A stretch of DNA of 50,797 nucleotides, taken from an uncultured Candidatus Saccharibacteria bacterium. Its GTDB lineage: Bacteria > Patescibacteriota > Minisyncoccia > UBA6257 > JAUSGH01. This document shows, one piece after another, positions 4,088 to 45,517 of this stretch. The DNA is taken from the NCBI GenBank assembly GCA_964360025.1, contig CAYHUD010000005.1, positions 1 to 50,797 on the forward strand, given 5' to 3'. Below the pieces are notes generated by a model that searched no databases, was not told where the DNA came from, and worked only from the letters and a program-made list of their open reading frames with translations. Within the stretch, counting starts at the first letter, position 1; the number at the start of each line of letters is the position of its first letter. A program made the position numbers and the translations under genes.

Positions 4088-4206
4088 ATCCCGTTAGAAA
4101 TAGCGGACGCAAATAACACAACGTATATATGTCGAAAACAATATTATCAAAAGTAAAAAATCTGGAACGCAGGACCTTGACGTCCGCGTCCTATTTCTAA
4201 CGGGAT
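4088..4206. mobile_element. MITE-like element with ATCCCGTTAGAAATAG terminal inverted repeats at the rpmJ start codon
   Basis: Perfect 16-bp IR at 4088-4103 / 4191-4206; ATGAA occurs on both sides (4084-4088, 4205-4209). Confidence 0.75.
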
Positions 4207-13533: not shown

Positions 13534-13580
13534 TCCCGTTAGAAGTAGCTCCGCGTAGCGGAGTGTCGGTTCTAACGGGA
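13534..13580. mobile_element. Short member of the CCCGTTAGAA element family, positioned as a terminator
   Basis: tcccgttagaa ... ttctaacggga IR enclosing a ctccgc/gcggag hairpin, followed by a T tract. Confidence 0.65.
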
Positions 13581-16069: not shown

Positions 16070-16192
16070 ATCCCGTTAGAAATGACGGACGCGTTTAAAA
16101 CCACTATGCTATCTATACTACAACTGAAATTATCAACTACTAACAACTTAGCGCGCGAATGTTTTAAATTCGCGCCCTATTTCTAACGGGAT
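16070..16192. mobile_element. CCCGTTAGAAAT element at the frr start codon
   Basis: 14-bp IR atcccgttagaaat 16070-16083 / 16179-16192; ATGG on both sides; shares the internal cggacgc with the rpmJ copy. Confidence 0.75.
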
Positions 16193-38326: not shown

Positions 38327-39487
38327 ATGGCTGAAGATTGGGCGGTAAATCCGGTAGAAGAACCGATTCGCCTGCCTGGTAGTCCCTTTTGGAATGTCTT
38401 CAGGCGTTTCGGCCGTGACGAAACGATAGCTCTCGTTATCAATGTCTGCGGTACCGCCGTCATGAGCTGTTTCACAACGTCCATTTTTTTACTTTCCATC
38501 GCCGGCCCCATCGTGGAGAAGATTGGTTTTTTTCCGGCGCACTTTTACGAGGCGTTTACTGTCTACAAGACAACTCCCCGGGAGCGGAGAAAAAAACTTC
38601 GGATTTATTTTGGGAAGGCCTGCAAAAACGGAGCGGTAAGTCTCACGGAAGATATCTTAATTCACGATCCTCTTTACGTTTTACTCTTTGCGCTTGTTTT
38701 GGCCTACCCGGGCGTGCCGCCTTGGCTTCTCGCAGGCTTCAGTTTTGTTGTTGCCATGGTTGCCGTGACTTTTTTGGAGGTCGCCTTTGTTGAAGCGGGA
38801 TACCGATTTTTCCAAAGACGTTTGCGGAGATGTGGTTTTGAATTGGAGTCCTATTATGAATCGCGTTTTTTGGTGAAGGCGGATAACGAAGAAATGGGGC
38901 GGCTGGTGCAGAAATTGAGCGCTGAATTTCATTTAAGCTTTATCGAAGACAAGTCTTACCAAGATTTGTATTTTGAGCATAAGCTTATTGGTTATTCCGG
39001 GCGCCGTCCGGTTCTACGTTTGCGAGAGAGGACTTTGGGGCCGTCTGATGTAAGGTGGATCAATAGTCATCCCGAGAGAGACGCGGAACAGTTCCTGCGT
39101 ACGGCACAGATTGTTTATAGCCGCGCCAACGAAGCGAACAGAAATCATTTGGATCAGTATCGATTTTTCGTGATTCGCAAGGAGAAGTTCTATCTTTTAC
39201 TTAATGCGCCGATGCCGGACGCGATTGAGGGCGTTAGCGGTTGCGACTTGAGGAAAGTAGCACGAAGCGGTACGGCAATTAAGGAGGTGCGCTTTCGAAG
39301 AACTGTTTTGAAAAACGGGGAAGTGGATCTGGTTGTGGCGATAGATCGTTCGCGGAAAAACAATTTTTGCCTCGTAGAGCTTAAGACATTTAAAGACATC
39401 ACCCTGCTTTTGAGGGTCATGCGACTGATTATGTTGGAGTCTTCGGCTGTGCAGATGACCGCGCAGAAACTGGATTGGGATTTTTAG
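38327..39487 (+). CDS. Hypothetical membrane protein with CYTH-like C-terminal domain
   Basis: N-terminal TMs; YESRF, YQDLYF, LRLRER, RFRR, VELK pattern. Confidence 0.6.
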   Translation: MAEDWAVNPVEEPIRLPGSPFWNVFRRFGRDETIALVINVCGTAVMSCFTTSIFLLSIAGPIVEKIGFFPAHFYEAFTVYKTTPRERRKKLRIYFGKACKNGAVSLTEDILIHDPLYVLLFALVLAYPGVPPWLLAGFSFVVAMVAVTFLEVAFVEAGYRFFQRRLRRCGFELESYYESRFLVKADNEEMGRLVQKLSAEFHLSFIEDKSYQDLYFEHKLIGYSGRRPVLRLRERTLGPSDVRWINSHPERDAEQFLRTAQIVYSRANEANRNHLDQYRFFVIRKEKFYLLLNAPMPDAIEGVSGCDLRKVARSGTAIKEVRFRRTVLKNGEVDLVVAIDRSRKNNFCLVELKTFKDITLLLRVMRLIMLESSAVQMTAQKLDWDF

Positions 39488-39521
39488 AGTTTAGGAATTA
39501 CAAAAGAGGTGGGGAGATAAC

Positions 39522-39719
39522 ATGAAGATCAACAGGGAGGCGGCTTGGGTTGGTATGGTTTTGAGATGTGACTGTGGATGCGAATTTCAACTGGAAAAGG
39601 AAGACAGAAGGAGAATCCGTCATTATTGGCATCCCGGACAAACAAATGAGGGGTATTATTATGTAGGGTGCCCGCAATGCAGGAAAAGAGTTAAGCTCGA
39701 GGGCATAAGAGCAATCTGA
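39522..39719 (+). CDS. Small zinc-ribbon protein
   Basis: CDCGC...CPQC; RBS upstream and terminator downstream. Confidence 0.65.
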   Translation: MKINREAAWVGMVLRCDCGCEFQLEKEDRRRIRHYWHPGQTNEGYYYVGCPQCRKRVKLEGIRAI

Positions 39720-39787
39720 AAATCTCCCGCCACGGCAATGGCGGGCTTTCTTTTTCTCATAAATTACCCTATATTTAAGTGGTCTTA

Positions 39788-39840
39788 CGGGGAGTAGTAT
39801 ACTCGCCTCGCTGAAGCTTGAGCGAAGCGGGTCGGCAGTA
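39788..39840 (+). pseudogene. 5' fragment of a tRNA-Pro with a 30-bp hairpin inserted in the D-loop
   Basis: cggggagtagtata[ctcgcctcgctgaagcttgagcgaagcggg]tcggcagta matches the 5' end of the adjacent tRNA-Pro; ends at tcccgttagagat. Confidence 0.7.
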
Positions 39841-39857
39841 TCCCGTTAGAGATATTC

Positions 39858-39928
39858 CGGGCTGTAGTATATCGGCAGTACACACGCTTCGGGTGCGTGA
39901 AGGCTGGGTTCGATTCCCAGCAGCCCGA
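39858..39928 (+). tRNA. tRNA-Pro(CGG)
   Basis: Acceptor cgggctg/cagcccg, anticodon arm cacgc-ttCGGgt-gcgtg, T arm ctggg-ttcgatt-cccag; CCA not encoded. Confidence 0.93.
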
Positions 39929-39963
39929 CAATTAATGTGAAGCGTTATTATATTTGACTATAT

Positions 39964-40683
39964 ATGCATCATTTTTTTATACCGCCTCAAGATATCCAGG
40001 GACGCATTGCAAAAATATCCGATCTTGAAACTATCAAGCAAATTTCCCGGGTCCTTCGGCTTGTTTCCGGCGAGGAGATTTTGCTTTTAGACGGCGATGG
40101 CTTGGAGTACGTCTCCCGTATTATTAAAGTCAACAGCCGTGAATGTTCTGCTGAGATTTTAAAACGTCAGATGAATATGAACGAGCCGGAACTAAAAATC
40201 GCCATTTTTCAGGCGTTGATCAAGAAAGATAATATGGAGTGGGTTGTGCAGAAGGGGACGGAAGTGGGCGCTTCGGTTTTTGTGCCGGTTCTGGCTGAAC
40301 GGAGTGAAAAAAAAGGTTTTAACCCGGAGCGCGCGCAAAAGATTTTAAAGGAAGCTTCAGAGCAGTCCCATCGCGGTATTATTCCATCGCTTTCCGAGCC
40401 GCAGGACTTCTTGCATATTTTAAAAGCGGTTGCCACAAGCGATATCCCGACGATGTTTCTGCATACCGAGGGCGAACCGATTAAGAATTTTTCTTCCAAT
40501 AAGCATCTTTATGCTCTGAATATATTTGTGGGTCCCGAGGGTGGGTGGAGTGAGGCCGAACTGGAGGCGGTTCGTTTGGCGATCCGCTCGGGCGCGCCTA
40601 TTGAGATGGTCAATCTGGGTTCGCGCGTCCTGCGCGCCGAGACGGCGGGGCTTCTTGCGGCGGGAATAATGTTGAATAGGTAA
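39964..40683 (+). CDS. rsmE: 16S rRNA m3U1498 methyltransferase
   Basis: RVLRL, VQKGTEVG, EASEQSHRG, FVGPEGGWS, LGSRVLRAETA. Confidence 0.95.
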   Translation: MHHFFIPPQDIQGRIAKISDLETIKQISRVLRLVSGEEILLLDGDGLEYVSRIIKVNSRECSAEILKRQMNMNEPELKIAIFQALIKKDNMEWVVQKGTEVGASVFVPVLAERSEKKGFNPERAQKILKEASEQSHRGIIPSLSEPQDFLHILKAVATSDIPTMFLHTEGEPIKNFSSNKHLYALNIFVGPEGGWSEAELEAVRLAIRSGAPIEMVNLGSRVLRAETAGLLAAGIMLNR

Positions 40684-40698
40684 GTAAAAAATCCCCGA

Positions 40699-41637
40699 CT
40701 AGGCTTTGTCGGGGTTCAGGGCATCAAGTACCTCTATTTTGTCATTATCAGAACCGGTGAGGACTATAACCTTGTGGGGTATTTCGGGGGGCAACCAGAA
40801 ATTTTTTTGGCTGGCCATAATCGCTTCGTGTTCGTCGCGAGTGATATCGCCTCGTTTGCTGATGTTTTGTGCGAGAAGCGCTTCCGAGGCATGCATGACG
40901 ATAAAGCGCAGGTTTATCTCATGGCGACACTCGGCATAAAGCGTCAGCGCGCCCGCGGGCGTGAGAGCTATGATTCCGCTTTGGTTTTTCAAGACAGCCT
41001 TGATCTCGTCAAGCGAACAGCCCCAATAGAAGCCGTTATGGTGTTCGTGCTCCAGGAAGAAGAAATTTGCCAGCCCTTCGCGGAATTCCTCGTCGCTCAA
41101 GAAGAAGTAGGATTCCACGTCGGCGGAATTTCTCTGCATGCGCGTGGTAAAAGTTTTGACGCGATGGATACGTCCCTGATAATAGTTAAGAGCTTTTTGA
41201 GACCAGTGTGTTTTACCGACTCCCTTTGGTCCCACAAAGACATAAAGCTTATGGGCTCCCCGGATTTCCGCGAGCACATCGCCGAACTCATCCTTTAGAT
41301 TGTCGTAGTATTTTTCCCATTCCGGATCAAAATCCACAAAGACGCGGAATTCTCCCTCCCTGTCTAGCCAGTGGCGCGTCTCTTTCATCACGCCCTCGGC
41401 AATGCCGAGAATTCCCATGTCATCGCAGCTGTCTAGGATGCCGATGTCAAATTTGAGAGTGCGTGCGCGGCCGATACGCGGGTTACCCTCGGAGTCTTCA
41501 TAACCCAGAGCGTCAAAAGGAACTGTGGGAGCGTATCCCTTCTTTCTCATCAGGACCTTTGCTTCCTCCCCGCGCTTTCTAAGACGCGTAGGCAGGGCGC
41601 AATAGATGATTTTTCCACGACTGCCGAAGTTCATCAC
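40699..41637 (-). CDS. Fusion of a DUF4406/NDT-like N-terminal domain and a guanylate-kinase-like domain
   Basis: C-terminal VGPKGVGKT, TFTTR, YFFLS.EEF, FLE, YWG; N-terminal IIYC...CDDM.I.G...G...E. Confidence 0.7.
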   Translation of the reverse strand: MMNFGSRGKIIYCALPTRLRKRGEEAKVLMRKKGYAPTVPFDALGYEDSEGNPRIGRARTLKFDIGILDSCDDMGILGIAEGVMKETRHWLDREGEFRVFVDFDPEWEKYYDNLKDEFGDVLAEIRGAHKLYVFVGPKGVGKTHWSQKALNYYQGRIHRVKTFTTRMQRNSADVESYFFLSDEEFREGLANFFFLEHEHHNGFYWGCSLDEIKAVLKNQSGIIALTPAGALTLYAECRHEINLRFIVMHASEALLAQNISKRGDITRDEHEAIMASQKNFWLPPEIPHKVIVLTGSDNDKIEVLDALNPDKA

Positions 41638-41791
41638 CCTCCCCCCAAATCAAAGAGCTTTGAAGTTAGATTATCAGATTATTCATTTATAGCCAACGGT
41701 TTTATCCTTTGTTTGACATCGTTAAGTAAAAGTATTATTTTTCAAGGGGTTCATCGCCACCATTAGTTTAGTCGGGAGGTGTTGTGTGGGC

Positions 41792-42850
41792 ATGAAGGAA
41801 AATTATGGTATTCATCGCGTCATTGCGCCATACGGTTCCGTGCCCCAGGCGGCGAGATTGTTGAATAACGCCCCCCGTCTTTTGAATCAGAAGGAAGTTT
41901 TGATTGATGTTCATACGCTCCAGCTGGACTCCACGAGCATGCGTGATCTGCGGACATATCGCGGCTATGATGACGGTGTGCGAGATGAGATTTTGAAGAT
42001 AGTGGAAAAAAGCGGGAAGATGCAGAATCCCCGCACCGGATCGGGCGGGGTGTTTGTGGGGAAAGTAAGGGAGATTGGTAGCGAACGCGCTGATTTCCCA
42101 CATCGAGTCGGCGACGAAGTCATCTCTCTTGTCTCTCTGACCGCGGTGCCTTTGCATCTGGAGTCGGTCGGAGAAATTCACGGGGATCAGGTTGCGGTTC
42201 GCGGCACGGCTGTATTTTTCCCTTGCTATCATTTGGCGAAAGTTCCGGATGATTTCTCGGCAAGTGTTGCACTCGCGGCGCTGGATATTTCTTCTCTTGT
42301 GCCACAAGTGGAACGCATCATGGATTTTCCCGACGGTAGTTATTGTTTTCAAAAGTTTTTTATCATCGGTTGCGGCAAGGCGGGAGTGACTGCGGCGGCG
42401 CTTCTACGCGATCGCGGCGGTTGTCCCACGACGATCGCGGCGGTTGATTTCTCGGAAAATCAGCTTGCAACTATGAAAGAGCTGGGATATGTCGGCGACG
42501 TGTTTAACCGGAATCTTCTGGGTCAACTGGATGCTACAGATGCCGGTAAGATGCTGGAGTTCGCTCATGGGGTAGTGGGGGAATTCGGTTTTGATGTGGT
42601 CATCAATTGCGTCAATGTTCCTGGGACAGAGGCCGCGAGCGTCATCGCGGCAAGGCCTGGCGGCACAGTCATTTTCTTTTCCATGGCCACGAACTTTCAG
42701 AGAGCGGTTCTCTCGACGGACGCCATAGGCAAGGATGTTCGTCTGCTCATGGGCGCGGGGATAGCCAAAGATCAGGACAGGGCAATGCTGGATCTTTTGC
42801 GCAAAGACAAAAAACTCCGTAGTTATTTTGAGGCACTGTGTAAGAGATAG
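41792..42850 (+). CDS. kdd: L-erythro-3,5-diaminohexanoate dehydrogenase-like protein
   Basis: YGIHRVI.P.GSVPQAA..L.N, EVLIDV..LQLDSTS, GKMQNP.TGSGG, SLVSLT..PL, NCVNVPGTE, FFSMATNF. Confidence 0.8.
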   Translation: MKENYGIHRVIAPYGSVPQAARLLNNAPRLLNQKEVLIDVHTLQLDSTSMRDLRTYRGYDDGVRDEILKIVEKSGKMQNPRTGSGGVFVGKVREIGSERADFPHRVGDEVISLVSLTAVPLHLESVGEIHGDQVAVRGTAVFFPCYHLAKVPDDFSASVALAALDISSLVPQVERIMDFPDGSYCFQKFFIIGCGKAGVTAAALLRDRGGCPTTIAAVDFSENQLATMKELGYVGDVFNRNLLGQLDATDAGKMLEFAHGVVGEFGFDVVINCVNVPGTEAASVIAARPGGTVIFFSMATNFQRAVLSTDAIGKDVRLLMGAGIAKDQDRAMLDLLRKDKKLRSYFEALCKR

Positions 42851-42898
42851 TCTTAGCCGTCGCAAGTACCGTTATTCGGTGTCTACGGCGGTTTTTTT

Positions 42899-43033
42899 AT
42901 AAAACAGCATACCCCCCCACTTTTTAGGAGACTAAAAGCGAAGTGCAGCCCTCGTTATAGCCAGAGGCCTGCCTGCCTGTAGGCAGGCACGAGGGCAAAA
43001 CGGTCTCCTAAAAAGTGGGGGTATGCTGTTTAT
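42899..43033. repeat. Palindromic element copy 2: same core as 7907-7977, different inverted arms
   Basis: aaacagcata(c)n actttttaggagac ... gtctcctaaaaagt(g)n tatgctgttt; arms differ only in homopolymer lengths. Confidence 0.85.
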
Positions 43034-43048
43034 GGTAGAATTAAGGTG

Positions 43049-44065
43049 ATGCAGAAAATCATTTCTTTTGTTCTTTCAGAGGCGCCACGGCTCAAGGGCG
43101 GCGAGGCGTTGGCCGTATCGCGGAGCGAAAGCGCCCCGCACTATTTCGGCGCATCCGTGCCCAAGCAGATTCTTTTAGATAAGGAACAGCACGATGTAGG
43201 CGGCAATAAAGTCCAGTTTCTGGTTAAAGCATATCTGCCTGATATTTTGGTAGTGGAGGCGGCCCTGGAAGTGGATGATATTTTTTCTGATAAGGCGTTT
43301 GAACTGCGAGATGCGATGGTTGATAAGTGTCATGCGGTTGTAAAACGCCGTGGCGGAAAGTTTGATTTTAGCGAAGAATATTCAGTAGCGATTGTTTCGG
43401 AGTATGTTGGCGGTCCGGAGCAGTTTTTTGAGTACGGGTCTCGTATCGCTAGCTTTTTAAAATCTGAAAAATTACCCCTTGATGAAAAGGAAGTGGAGTA
43501 TACTCTCGCTTCGCAGATTAAATACGGCAAGGATGATTTAGTCGTTGCCGACTGGGATGGCGCTTTTATCTTTGATCCGCACGGAGAATATCAATCCATC
43601 GTAGAACTGTTCCAGGTAGCTAATCTTCAGCTTCTGCGGTATCGCGTGCTGGATTATGAACTGGACGACCGCTTGAAAAAGGTTAATAAAACTTTGCAAG
43701 GGACTAGCAAGAAACTCACTTTTTTTAAGGATAAGGAATTAGGCGACGCTTTCCGCGATGCCATTGCCACTCGTTCGCGTTCCATTGCCGAGTTTGAAGC
43801 TATGGACCGGGAAATAAAACTAATCGGCGACTGGTACTACGCCCGTCTTTACGAACTAGTCGGGAAAAAAATGAAGCTGGATACCTGGAAAAACTCTATT
43901 AAAGAAAAATTAGATTCCCTGGAAGATGTTTATTCTATTGTTGCCGAAAATTTTAGTATCTCCCGCACGCACTTTTTGGAGTTGATTCAGATTATTCTAT
44001 TCTTTATTCTTCAGGCTGGTTGGTTCGTCTTAATTATTTTGGAGTTTATTTATTTCACGAGATAA
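43049..44065 (+). CDS. Hypothetical protein with C-terminal TM (RMD1/DUF155-like)
   Basis: YGKDDLVVADWDGA, ANLQLL..R.LD, IGDWYYARLY, LELIQIIL. Confidence 0.65.
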   Translation: MQKIISFVLSEAPRLKGGEALAVSRSESAPHYFGASVPKQILLDKEQHDVGGNKVQFLVKAYLPDILVVEAALEVDDIFSDKAFELRDAMVDKCHAVVKRRGGKFDFSEEYSVAIVSEYVGGPEQFFEYGSRIASFLKSEKLPLDEKEVEYTLASQIKYGKDDLVVADWDGAFIFDPHGEYQSIVELFQVANLQLLRYRVLDYELDDRLKKVNKTLQGTSKKLTFFKDKELGDAFRDAIATRSRSIAEFEAMDREIKLIGDWYYARLYELVGKKMKLDTWKNSIKEKLDSLEDVYSIVAENFSISRTHFLELIQIILFFILQAGWFVLIILEFIYFTR

Positions 44066-44070
44066 GGATT

Positions 44071-44565
44071 CTATAATTCCAACGCTTTTTTAACCGCCCC
44101 CAGAGTATCGGGGAATACGGCTAATATTTTCGGCGGGACGCCTGATTTAAATTTGCTTAAGTCTTGGGAGTCTTTAAGGTCCGCGGCGGTTACGAGACGG
44201 ATGCCGCCCGAGTCTGGTCCCAGTCTAATTTTTTCAAGAAAAGAGCTATTTATTTTGACGGCATAAATCTCTCCCCGTTCATTTTTACGTTTGAATTCAG
44301 CAACTTTAATTAACTTTTGCGGACGTAAGATTTTTGCAACCTCCGCGCCCAACTCTTCTTTAGTTTCTCTAAACAGCGCCTCTAAGATCGATTCATTGGG
44401 ATTGATGCCACCATAGACTGTCACCTGGCATCCGCCGGCGTAGTATTGCGGACGATTTTCTTCATGATTAAAAAGCCCCCGTGTTTGGAGCGCCACCACC
44501 TTCCCGCGTTTTGGTATTTCTGTGACAACTAAGAGACCGACTCCTTGACGAATTTCTTTTGACAT
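44071..44565 (-). CDS. NUDIX-fold hydrolase
   Basis: GGINPNESILEALFRETKEELG Nudix box. Confidence 0.8.
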   Translation of the reverse strand: MSKEIRQGVGLLVVTEIPKRGKVVALQTRGLFNHEENRPQYYAGGCQVTVYGGINPNESILEALFRETKEELGAEVAKILRPQKLIKVAEFKRKNERGEIYAVKINSSFLEKIRLGPDSGGIRLVTAADLKDSQDLSKFKSGVPPKILAVFPDTLGAVKKALEL

Positions 44566-44598
44566 AAGAGTTATTCAACTTCTTCGGCAAATCAAATT

Positions 44599-44672
44599 TG
44601 GTGGACCCAGCGAGAATCGAACTCGCGCCTCGGCAATGCGAATGCCGCGTAATACCACTTTACTATGGGCCC
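44599..44672 (-). tRNA. tRNA-Ala(CGC)
   Basis: gggccca/tgggtcc acceptor with G3-U70, cggca-ttCGCat-tgccg, gcgag-ttcgatt-ctcgc, encoded CCA. Confidence 0.95.
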
Positions 44673-44693
44673 TTATTAGTATTTCTAACGGGG

Positions 44694-44787
44694 TGAGAAG
44701 TGCCGCATCATACCAAGCCGACGCTTCGGTCGGCTCCCCGACTTCTTTTATAATTTAAAATGTGCGTCGGGGCTGAACCATAGGCCC
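44694..44787 (-). pseudogene. 5' half of a tRNA-Ala-like gene with two hairpins inserted in the D-loop
   Basis: gggcctatggttcag[57 nt]tggtatgatgcggca aligns gap-free with gggcccatagtaaagtggtattacgcggca; ends at ccccgttagaaat. Confidence 0.65.
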
Positions 44788-44891
44788 CTCTGCGGATTAG
44801 TTTATATCAAAATAGCGAGAAATACCAGCAAAAATAAATATTCTACCAAGTCCACTTTGATTTTTTGAGATTTTCATTATAAGATAAAGTA

Positions 44892-45446
44892 ATGAAAAAG
44901 ACACTACTTATCATATTAGCAACCGTTGTTTTTGCGGGTGTTTTGACTTGGGGTTATTACAATAAGTTTGTTAGCGCGAGTGAGGGCGTGGACAGTCTCT
45001 GGGCGCAGGTAGAAACGCAATATCAGAGGCGTTTTGATTTGATTCCGAATTTGGTTAGTTCGGTAAAAGGTATTTTTGAACAAGAAAAGGAAGTGTTTGG
45101 AAAATTGGCTGATGCACGTACGAAATATGGCGCGGCGGGAAATGTTCCCGAAAAGGTAGCGGCGGCAAATGAAGTAGAGGGAGCTTTGGCGCGCTTGCTT
45201 GTGGTCTTGGAAAATTATCCGCAGCTGCGTTCCAGCGAGGCGGTCACGAGTTTGATGGTGCAACTGGAAGGCACGGAAAATCGTATCAGCGTAGAGCGCA
45301 AAAGATTTAATGATGGCGTAAGGGACTACAATCTGACGGTTAAAACATTCCCTGGAAAGTTTTTCGCCGCGATTTTCGGTTTTGGTGAAAAGGAATATTT
45401 TGAAAGCGTAGAGGGCTCCGAAGTGGCTCCGAAGGTAGAGTTTTAG
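44892..45446 (+). CDS. lemA: LemA family protein
   Basis: WAQVETQYQRRFDLIPNLV, ENYPQL, LEGTENRISVERKRFN. Confidence 0.95.
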   Translation: MKKTLLIILATVVFAGVLTWGYYNKFVSASEGVDSLWAQVETQYQRRFDLIPNLVSSVKGIFEQEKEVFGKLADARTKYGAAGNVPEKVAAANEVEGALARLLVVLENYPQLRSSEAVTSLMVQLEGTENRISVERKRFNDGVRDYNLTVKTFPGKFFAAIFGFGEKEYFESVEGSEVAPKVEF

Positions 45447-45451
45447 CAATC

Positions 45452-45517
45452 GTCATCCTGAGCGGAGCGAAGGATCTCCGGAGATTCTTCGTTTCGCTTC
45501 GCTACACTCAGAATGAC
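45452..45517. repeat. REP-like element GTCATCCTGAGC...CTCAGAATGAC
   Basis: Imperfect IR gtcatcctgag...gcgaaggatctc / gagattcttcg...ctcagaatgac; its right end overlaps the ATG of the next ORF. Confidence 0.8.

Follow-up and report, generated by a model that had tools for sequence, protein, structure and literature searches.

Probable remnants of nested tRNA genes at two tRNA loci of an uncultured Saccharibacteria bacterium

In a 50,797-nt stretch of DNA from an uncultured Candidatus Saccharibacteria bacterium (GenBank assembly GCA_964360025.1, contig CAYHUD010000005.1, positions 1 to 50,797; this whole stretch is called the window below), an intact tRNA-Pro(CGG) gene and an intact tRNA-Ala(CGC) gene on opposite strands are each preceded by the broken 5' part of a similar tRNA gene, and in both cases the broken part gives way to the motif CCCGTTAGA. 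What process leaves a dead tRNA half, a short motif and an intact tRNA of the same kind in a row, and does so twice within some 5 kb? A preliminary description of the window, made from its sequence alone, saw here either tRNA genes that had been damaged by hairpins and then replaced in place by incoming alleles, with the motif marking the junction, or one composite unit with a tRNA at each end. The units themselves proved real, and that description of them is right to within one base. We propose, with a probability of roughly three in four, that each represents what wear has left of a nested tRNA gene, that is, the scar of a replacement in which a new tRNA gene was placed inside an older one of its own kind.

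In the proline unit, the dead fragment matches positions 1-14 of tRNA-Pro at 12 of 14 sites (39788-39801), is interrupted by a 30-nt GC-rich hairpin (39802-39831) and resumes with the next 9 nt of the tRNA, all nine identical (39832-39840). A T stands between this fragment and the motif, which occupies 39842-39850 and does not begin at 39841 as first described; the fragment and its hairpin had been described correctly, as had the starts of both intact genes (Table 1). The tRNA-Pro begins 4 nt past a 12-nt arm. The dead part lacks the anticodon-stem strand that is present in the outer tRNA-Pro of the relative G103, and the right arm and the old 3' half have been deleted from the unit. In G103, G034 and G070 the right arm is followed by the word GTGAAG, and the window has this word at 39937-39942, read by eye where the MAFFT alignment is not clean. 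The dead allele, beginning CGGGGAG, recurs as the outer gene of both G103 and G034, while G033 has it as an intact tRNA, and at the spot where a right-arm word with one mismatch overlaps the start of the fragment, G101 has the exact word, ahead of its outer tRNA-Pro.

The tRNA-Ala-like 5' end of the second unit begins at 44787 on the minus strand and holds hairpins at 44772-44736 and 44735-44716, after which a 15-nt stretch within 44715-44693 agrees with the intact tRNA-Ala at 13 of 15 sites. A copy of CCCGTTAGA follows at 44692-44684, and then an 8-nt leader; the relic on the right side is truncated ahead of the start of a NUDIX gene at 44565. Taken alone this fragment looks weak, but it is confirmed by G001, a genome of the same genus, whose hairpin-free 5' half runs on into the same junction.

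Comparison of synteny with relatives, proposed in the preliminary description as a way to the ancestral state, recovered complete nested units in G001, G006 and G103, and the two units of the window align onto the complete proline and alanine units of relatives, with the right-side relics visible. The unit of G001 runs from a hairpin-free old Ala 5' half through CCCGTTAGAAAT, an 8-nt leader, a tRNA-Ala(CGC) with CCA and ATTTCTAACGGG to an old 3' half that still has its strand of the anticodon stem, its T arm and its acceptor strand and in which three pairs are weakened; the cassette of G001 is complete in 106 nt. The outer tRNA-Ala gene of G006 is perfect except for the insert, and its predicted RNA fold is an outer cloverleaf with the anticodon arm lengthened by the arms of the cassette (z = -6.57). 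G103 has a full tRNA-Pro unit, with the window's outer allele (CGGGGAG) and the ATTC leader; its right arm is present and its old 3' half is intact. As judged from these sequences, G006, G001 and the genome of the window (G000) form a series of progressive decay. Nesting also stacks: G017 carries an allele within an allele within an allele, each of the three layers with its own pair of arms, and G277 shows the same stacking on the right side. Outer alleles in one genome are inner alleles in another. Moreover, the alanine unit of G000 is nearer to that of G116, from another family, than to that of its congener G001, sharing 78 versus 44 of 107 columns over the outer half and arm and 64 versus 60 of 71 columns over the cargo.

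Nested tRNA genes with other ends were also observed. In locus L027 (G004:C9:12098-12376, minus strand) a tRNA-Ala(CGC) is split at 37/38 by ~210 nt that include a second complete tRNA-Ala(CGC), with ends other than CCCGTTAGA; it is a second kind of nesting. Nested tRNA-Pro units in loci L006 (G034; 690-830) and L010 (G019; 1300-1800 of the reverse complement) have the inverted repeats CCCCCACACCAATT and TGGTGATATCCTTTGGT, respectively, in place of the CCCGTTAGA arms, and the CCCCCACACCAATT-type repeat is also found on contigs of other organisms in groundwater runs. At ~9480-9580 of contig C9 of G000, a T-loop-like word, GTTCGATTC, with a flanking stem receives no ARAGORN call and could be an unusual or interrupted tRNA.

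The hairpins in the dead halves belong to a separate repeat family that has copies in relatives and at other places of G000. In G116, both hairpins lie at the same spot of the D loop in the outer Ala half, the second of them identical at 20 of 20 positions; G020 has the same two at this spot in the fragment before a tRNA-Ala(GGC), as does contig C6 of G000 in a dead tRNA-Asn half. Because G001 and G006 carry the old Ala 5' half free of hairpins, these repeats entered after the interruption. What we retain of the first reading in the preliminary description is hence the replacement in place by incoming alleles with the motif at the junction, and not the prior damage by hairpins. Small GC-rich hairpin repeats were noted at 39802-39831 and 44772-44716 of the window and at C7:26634-26663, C1:54418-54433 and C6:329-342 of G000, and a CCTGCCTGCCGGCAGGCAGG-type palindrome occupies D or T loops of dead halves at many of the listed loci from the candidate phyla radiation (CPR).

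Recurrence of the architecture was assessed with a strict pattern (arm, 50-80 nt, T-loop word, 12-40 nt, arm), which within the order gave 13 matches in 12 of 301 genomes, the reversed control giving 0. All 13 lie between the halves of a tRNA gene of the same kind; the split is in the anticodon loop at 12 of them and in the D arm at the other. A wide census of one genome per species across prokaryotes recovered at least 109 loci in named species genomes, most of them in CPR/Patescibacteria, including Saccharibacteria and many Parcubacteria lineages, and a few in metagenome-assembled genomes labelled as other phyla. Among the matches listed, to which the counts of cargo units given below also refer, ARAGORN calls a cargo tRNA in 98 of 109, with 18 anticodon kinds (Ala-CGC 25, Pro-CGG 11, Thr-TGT 10, Val-CAC 8, Thr-CGT 7 and 13 further kinds). 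When the flanks are joined, a cloverleaf forms across the joint in 48 of these 98 units and in none of the 11 without cargo; the joint falls at positions 27-40 in 38 of the 48, at 12-17 in six and elsewhere in four. Where it falls at a good distance from the anticodon arm, at 12-17, 21-26 or 43-48, the outer anticodon is that of the cargo in seven of eight units. Further, the best match of the flanks is the cargo of other units for the same amino acid in 82 of 95 cases, and the outer allele is often nearer to the cargo of another genome than to its own, as a turnover of alleles predicts.

The ends of these cassettes have a consistent organization. Their arms are terminal inverted repeats that pair over 10-20 contiguous bp in 95 cargo units, and in 92 of 95 the first pair of flanking bases is complementary; no target-site duplication is evident, the mean direct identity of the flanks being 0.96 of 6. 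The commonest pairs of end words, CTTGC...GTGAA and TTCAC...GCAAG, occur 13 times each and are mutual reverse complements, so that a single asymmetric element is involved, with cargo in either direction; both orientation classes reduce to TTCAY before the left arm and RCAAG after the right arm. G.U and A.C covariation beside the arms had been considered as evidence of an RNA and was rejected, since it is this asymmetric element read on opposite strands.

The arm motif itself is not confined to tRNA genes. The exact 9-mer CCCGTTAGA occurs eight times in the window against 0.28 expected, a count that 0 of 100 shuffles reach, and 52 times in the 682-kb genome against ~5 expected from base-composition arithmetic; with one mismatch allowed, the window is not enriched (13 versus 10.3 expected). 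Because the motif recurs across the genome, the two arm ends in the window belong to a genome-wide family, and are not the lone ends they were first taken for. Nearly all copies in G000 form inverted pairs, plus then minus, spaced 36-119 nt apart, and 26 such pairs, with one mismatch allowed, are without cargo. The bases just inside the 9-mer vary among copies and are complementary within every listed copy, and many cargo-less copies are bordered by direct repeats of 5-7 nt. Eighteen of the 26 end exactly at an outward-reading ATG, the elements at start codons being ~95-119 nt long (contigs C1-C16). Two of these start codons are confirmed by Pfam as those of rpmJ (L36) and frr (ribosome recycling factor). 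At rpmJ the element has a target-site duplication: the site in G000 reads ATGAA, T, element, then ATGAA AGT, and the empty site, ATGAAAGT or ATGAAGGT, is found in G002-G005, which represent the family's four remaining genera. Among the listed pairs of exact copies, 39842/44692 alone is separated by more than ~120 nt, and in G000, to which this comparison is limited, this pair encloses no transposase.

Several further observations concern these elements. Other genes with an element at the start codon were named by eye from their N-termini (dnaA, ruvB, fmt, clpB, gatA, grpE, rplC and pilus genes). In relatives, the region upstream of rpmJ is without a Shine-Dalgarno-like sequence. The rpmJ site of G001 (contig C45; L176, ~615-735) holds an element with the same junction letters, ATGAAT, CCCG...CGGG, ATGAAAGT, and with wholly different arms, CCCGCACTCAACGAC, a word found seven times in G001 with one mismatch allowed. 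In locus L028 (G032:C21; 393-740), a tRNA-Ala and an old 3' half carry ~100-nt elements with the same arms at their 3' ends; the insertion point is after GTCCAC and before CA, and a GTCCAC stands on either side.

Table 1. Coordinates of the two tRNA units and of related elements in the window
Feature	Coordinates	Strand	Remarks
Cargo-less element, same arms	4090..4204		ATGAA repeats on both sides; ends exactly at the rpmJ start codon
45-nt palindromic member of the arm family, intergenic	13535..13579		
Cargo-less element, same arms	16072..16190		ends exactly at the frr start codon
TCTTACGGG, right-arm word with one mismatch	39783..39791	-	overlaps 4 nt at the start of the dead tRNA-Pro half
Dead 5' part of an older tRNA-Pro (allele starting CGGGGAG)	39788..39841	+	39788-39801 and 39832-39841, hairpin between
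Left arm of the Pro cassette, CCCGTTAGAGAT, and 4-nt leader ATTC	39842..39857	+	counterpart in G103: CCCGTTAGATAT and ATTC before the inner tRNA-Pro
Cargo, intact tRNA-Pro(CGG)	39858..39929	+	ARAGORN; Rfam RF00005 (56.0 bits)
Pro trailer and right-junction relic	39930..39944	+	GTGAAG at 39937-39942
Degenerate Ala right arm and start of the old 3' half (ATTT...AAGTTG)	44576..44598	-	alignment with relatives
Cargo, intact tRNA-Ala(CGC)	44599..44672	-	ARAGORN; Rfam RF00005 (66.6 bits)
Left arm of the Ala cassette, CCCGTTAGAAAT, and 8-nt leader	44673..44692	-	both homologous in G001
Dead 5' half of an older tRNA-Ala (allele GGGCCTATGGTTCAG...), to the first loop bases	44693..44787	-	two D-loop hairpins

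In light of these features, the cassette, of ~105 nt, comprises a 5-nt end word, the arm CCCGTTAGA with 1-11 further pairing bases, a leader and a whole tRNA, followed by a short trailer, the complementary arm ending in TCTAACGGG and a second end word. It sits in a loop of the resident gene that encodes the same tRNA; the anticodon loop is the usual place, and the D, variable or T loop an occasional one. We propose that its insertion splits and inactivates the old gene while the cargo tRNA takes over the job, presumably being transcribed from the upstream side of the old gene. The old halves then decay, in G000 to the point where only a few bases of the 3' halves and right arms are left, and the old 5' halves of G000 remain as leaders, later colonised by the GC-rich hairpin repeats.

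As to how such a cassette spreads, we tentatively suggest, at less than even odds, a homing-like gene conversion, in which the loop of an uninterrupted tRNA gene would be cut and repaired from incoming nested DNA, with the old halves acting as homology arms. Repair of this kind would account for the absence of target duplication and for the fact that nesting is strictly in a tRNA of the same kind. The hairpin arms, for their part, would derive from the transposing family that also produced the 26 cargo-less copies with 5-7 nt direct repeats. Homing is favoured because two more units of G000 that combine a dead half with an intact tRNA carry genes for homing-type nucleases. At C8:770-1156 a dead tRNA-Leu 5' half, itself with a CTGCC...GGCAGG-type hairpin insert, is followed by a 97-codon GIY-YIG open reading frame (ORF; 64 bits) and an intact tRNA-Leu(CAA) of a different allele, a layout repeated at a tRNA-Ala(GGC) in G020 (contig C15; L029, 1900-2320; 49.3 bits). 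At C6:27862-28650 (L036, 463-1250) a tRNA-Asn(GTT) missed by ARAGORN holds a group I intron (RF00028, 51.2 bits) and an HNH ORF in its anticodon loop; upstream of it lie a dead tRNA-Asn 5' half with three hairpin inserts and a ~18-nt repeat of the tRNA's upstream sequence. A second small GIY-YIG ORF was noticed at C1:49300-50250, among repeats that start with GTCATTCTGAGC and contain a CCTGCC...GGCAGG palindrome, with no tRNA nearby. Somewhat less likely still is a CPR-wide selfish system of tRNA-gene replacement with a mechanism of its own, which would amount to a new class of mobile element. In such a system a nuclease might work in trans, with homing guided by the cargo or the old halves, or else insertion might take place at the single-strand or RNA level into exposed loops and start-codon regions. 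If such a system exists, it would entail continual turnover of alleles, Russian-doll genes and a hairpin family that is silent at essential start codons.

A number of results weigh against the proposed nesting and its spread by homing. The right-arm relics in G000 were partly read by eye, 50 of 98 cargo units no longer yield an outer cloverleaf, and 13 of 95 flanks are not classed with their own cargo, these being mostly decayed or single-member kinds. The cassettes could be linked to no enzyme, since the genes for GIY-YIG and HNH proteins lie in other units and not in those with CCCGTTAGA; in the window units, no nuclease gene was found inside the inserted DNA. The transposase domain Y1_Tnp (PF01797) is present in 16 of 41 relatives and absent from G000 despite its 52 copies of the motif; no motif lies near 12 Y1_Tnp genes, and the presence of the domain is unrelated to motif copy number. 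Homing accounts neither for the same arms around 18 anticodon kinds nor for wholly different arms at the same site in related genomes, such as G103 versus G034, or G000 versus G001 at rpmJ. Finally, a scan for promoter consensus sequences gave nothing convincing and did no better than shuffles, and for this reason co-transcription from the old promoter is an assumption of the model.

Two other ideas were discarded: the motif as a promoter, by the same consensus scan, and split tRNAs, for which no fitting 3' acceptor strands were found beside T loops. Local alignment of 40 tRNAs against their own flanks was uninformative on account of the hairpin gaps (Pro 18, Ala 21, null mean ~15). The weak Y1_Tnp matches (L165-L172; G001, G002, G003, G006, G015, G031, G035 and G037) form a conserved family of ~225-247 aa, with an N-terminus resembling ...IYHVLNRGVDKRKIF..., in single or double copy, absent from G000 and without CCCGTTAGA nearby.

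Could the DNA from 39842 to 44692 instead be a single composite mobile unit of 4.85 kb, bounded on each side by a tRNA and an inverted end, as the preliminary description had offered? The polarity of the arms, plus then minus, does match that of the small elements, but this is highly improbable given that the Ala cassette of G001, complete by itself, has its own right arm and is inverted relative to rsmE and the RMD1-like gene. That genome shares the order of these two genes, and its tRNA-Pro(CGG) is on another contig, with no fragment. In the window, each tRNA has its own right-junction relic just past it, the flanks are the 5' halves of two different tRNAs on opposite strands, and the five ORFs between the tRNAs encode housekeeping domains (RsmE, guanylate kinase, Zn-dehydrogenase and NUDIX) or no recognizable domain, and no transposase or integrase; none of the nine ORFs around and between the units has an integrase domain. 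An assembly artefact is less probable again, to the point of being negligible. Repeats and tRNAs are admittedly hard to assemble from metagenomes, and the Ala junction is spanned by none of the listed Logan contigs, 44748-44938 being without cover; yet contigs from two studies span the Pro fragment, the motif and the tRNA-Pro with zero differences (39537-39893 and 39691-39893, the set X1 behind the former possibly being the source sample), and the Ala junction recurs in the independent assemblies G001, G116 and G006.

More serious are readings in which the cassette is not a scar of replacement. Ordinary cut-and-paste or rolling-circle transposition into a short target word, with same-kind nesting as the survivors of selection, draws on the direct repeats and the one verified empty site of the cargo-less copies, on the single asymmetric element behind both orientation classes, and on the end words CAAG and GAAC, which the accessible part of PMC3189936 gives as target words of the rolling-circle insertion sequences IS801 and IS91. 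The cassettes resemble IS91/IS801 also in the absence of target duplication and in that neighbouring DNA can be carried. We nevertheless consider this improbable: not one of the 98 cargo units can be placed clearly outside a tRNA gene, even though neutral landings between genes ought to survive, the cargo units are without direct repeats, IS91 is described in that same part of the source as lacking the proper inverted repeats seen here, and Y2_Tnp was detected in 0 of 41 genomes, its control being silent. Slightly less probable is that the cassettes are intron-like sequences removed from RNA, leaving functional outer tRNAs and mRNAs, with the cargo as a bonus. The inserts do lie in loops that they extend as helices; their removal restores a perfect 7-nt anticodon loop in the tRNA-Leu units of G047 and the tRNA-Pro unit of G101; D-loop inserts leave the outer anticodon whole; and copies at start codons (rpmJ and frr, and by eye dnaA, ruvB, clpB and gatA) would be harmless if removed. 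Against this, 0 of 41 genomes contain the splicing endonuclease PF01974, for which four archaeal controls are positive, RtcB is found in 11 of 41 and not in G000 or its family, and there is no bulge-helix-bulge, nor any match to RF00028 or another Rfam intron at 39000-45500 (E up to 10). Most outer Ala and Val genes lack anticodon bases, and outer genes decay, in G001 and then in G000, as in the half of the cargo units without a cloverleaf. The outer halves might, lastly, be kept as a scaffold for the processing or expression of the inner tRNA, since 48 of 98 are still perfect cloverleaves and the window retains 5' halves and has lost 3' ones, as expected if the 5' side holds promoter and leader. 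This we regard as very improbable, as the 3' halves are gone in G000, mismatches accumulate in G001, hairpin repeats invade the halves, and many relatives encode the same tRNAs in plain, un-nested genes. Replacement by nesting thus remains our preferred reading.

How do the nested cassettes compare with known systems? MITEs (miniature inverted-repeat transposable elements), REPINs and mobile insertion cassettes are non-autonomous inverted-repeat elements, some with passenger genes. Like MITEs and REPINs, the cassettes are short, have no enzyme of their own, end in complementary sequences and belong to a family of many dispersed copies, and the cargo-less copies share with MITEs the short direct repeats. 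Unlike MITEs, they carry a whole tRNA gene, lack a direct repeat, turned up only within tRNA genes of their own kind and have a 9-nt arm core that recurs across many CPR lineages; unlike in REPIN/RAYT systems, Y1 HUH transposase genes are not flanked by the repeats, and their presence is unrelated to the number of copies. Phages and islands that integrate into tRNA genes bring a copy of the 3' part of the tRNA. They resemble the cassettes in targeting tRNA loops and in restoring tRNA function with incoming DNA, whereas here a complete tRNA is contained in ~105 nt, both old halves adjoin it, and there is neither an integrase nor a distal 3' fragment. Homing endonuclease genes include cases of intron-less or collaborative homing such as the T4 seg genes. 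Shared with these are allele replacement at one fixed site, the presumed immunity of the interrupted site and the GIY-YIG and HNH genes of the sister units, but the CCCGTTAGA cassettes have no nuclease gene. Introns of tRNA genes, namely bacterial group I introns and archaeal bulge-helix-bulge introns, include nested or transposed ones and likewise occupy anticodon, D or T loops; unlike them, the cassettes show no ribozyme match, bulge-helix-bulge or splicing endonuclease, and the outer genes often have no anticodon. Consistent with the earlier statement that no named system resembles this arrangement, a literature search, in which subscription journals were not covered, turned up no description, for bacteria, of one tRNA gene nested inside another or of inverted-repeat elements that carry a tRNA, and the accessible part of a paper on rRNA insertions in CPR (PMC11270868) has 0 occurrences of tRNA or inverted repeat.

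Transfer RNA genes are usually seen as stable anchors beside which mobile DNA lands. Here the tRNA gene would itself be the cargo and its own kind the target, and in very small genomes tRNA alleles would turn over horizontally, leaving layers that can be dated. Such turnover would explain the tRNA pseudo-fragments in CPR assemblies, at loci that tRNA finders miss or mislabel. A hairpin repeat family placed exactly at essential start codons raises a testable question about the initiation of translation, and if a nuclease drives the process, it would constitute a small natural system of sequence-specific gene replacement.

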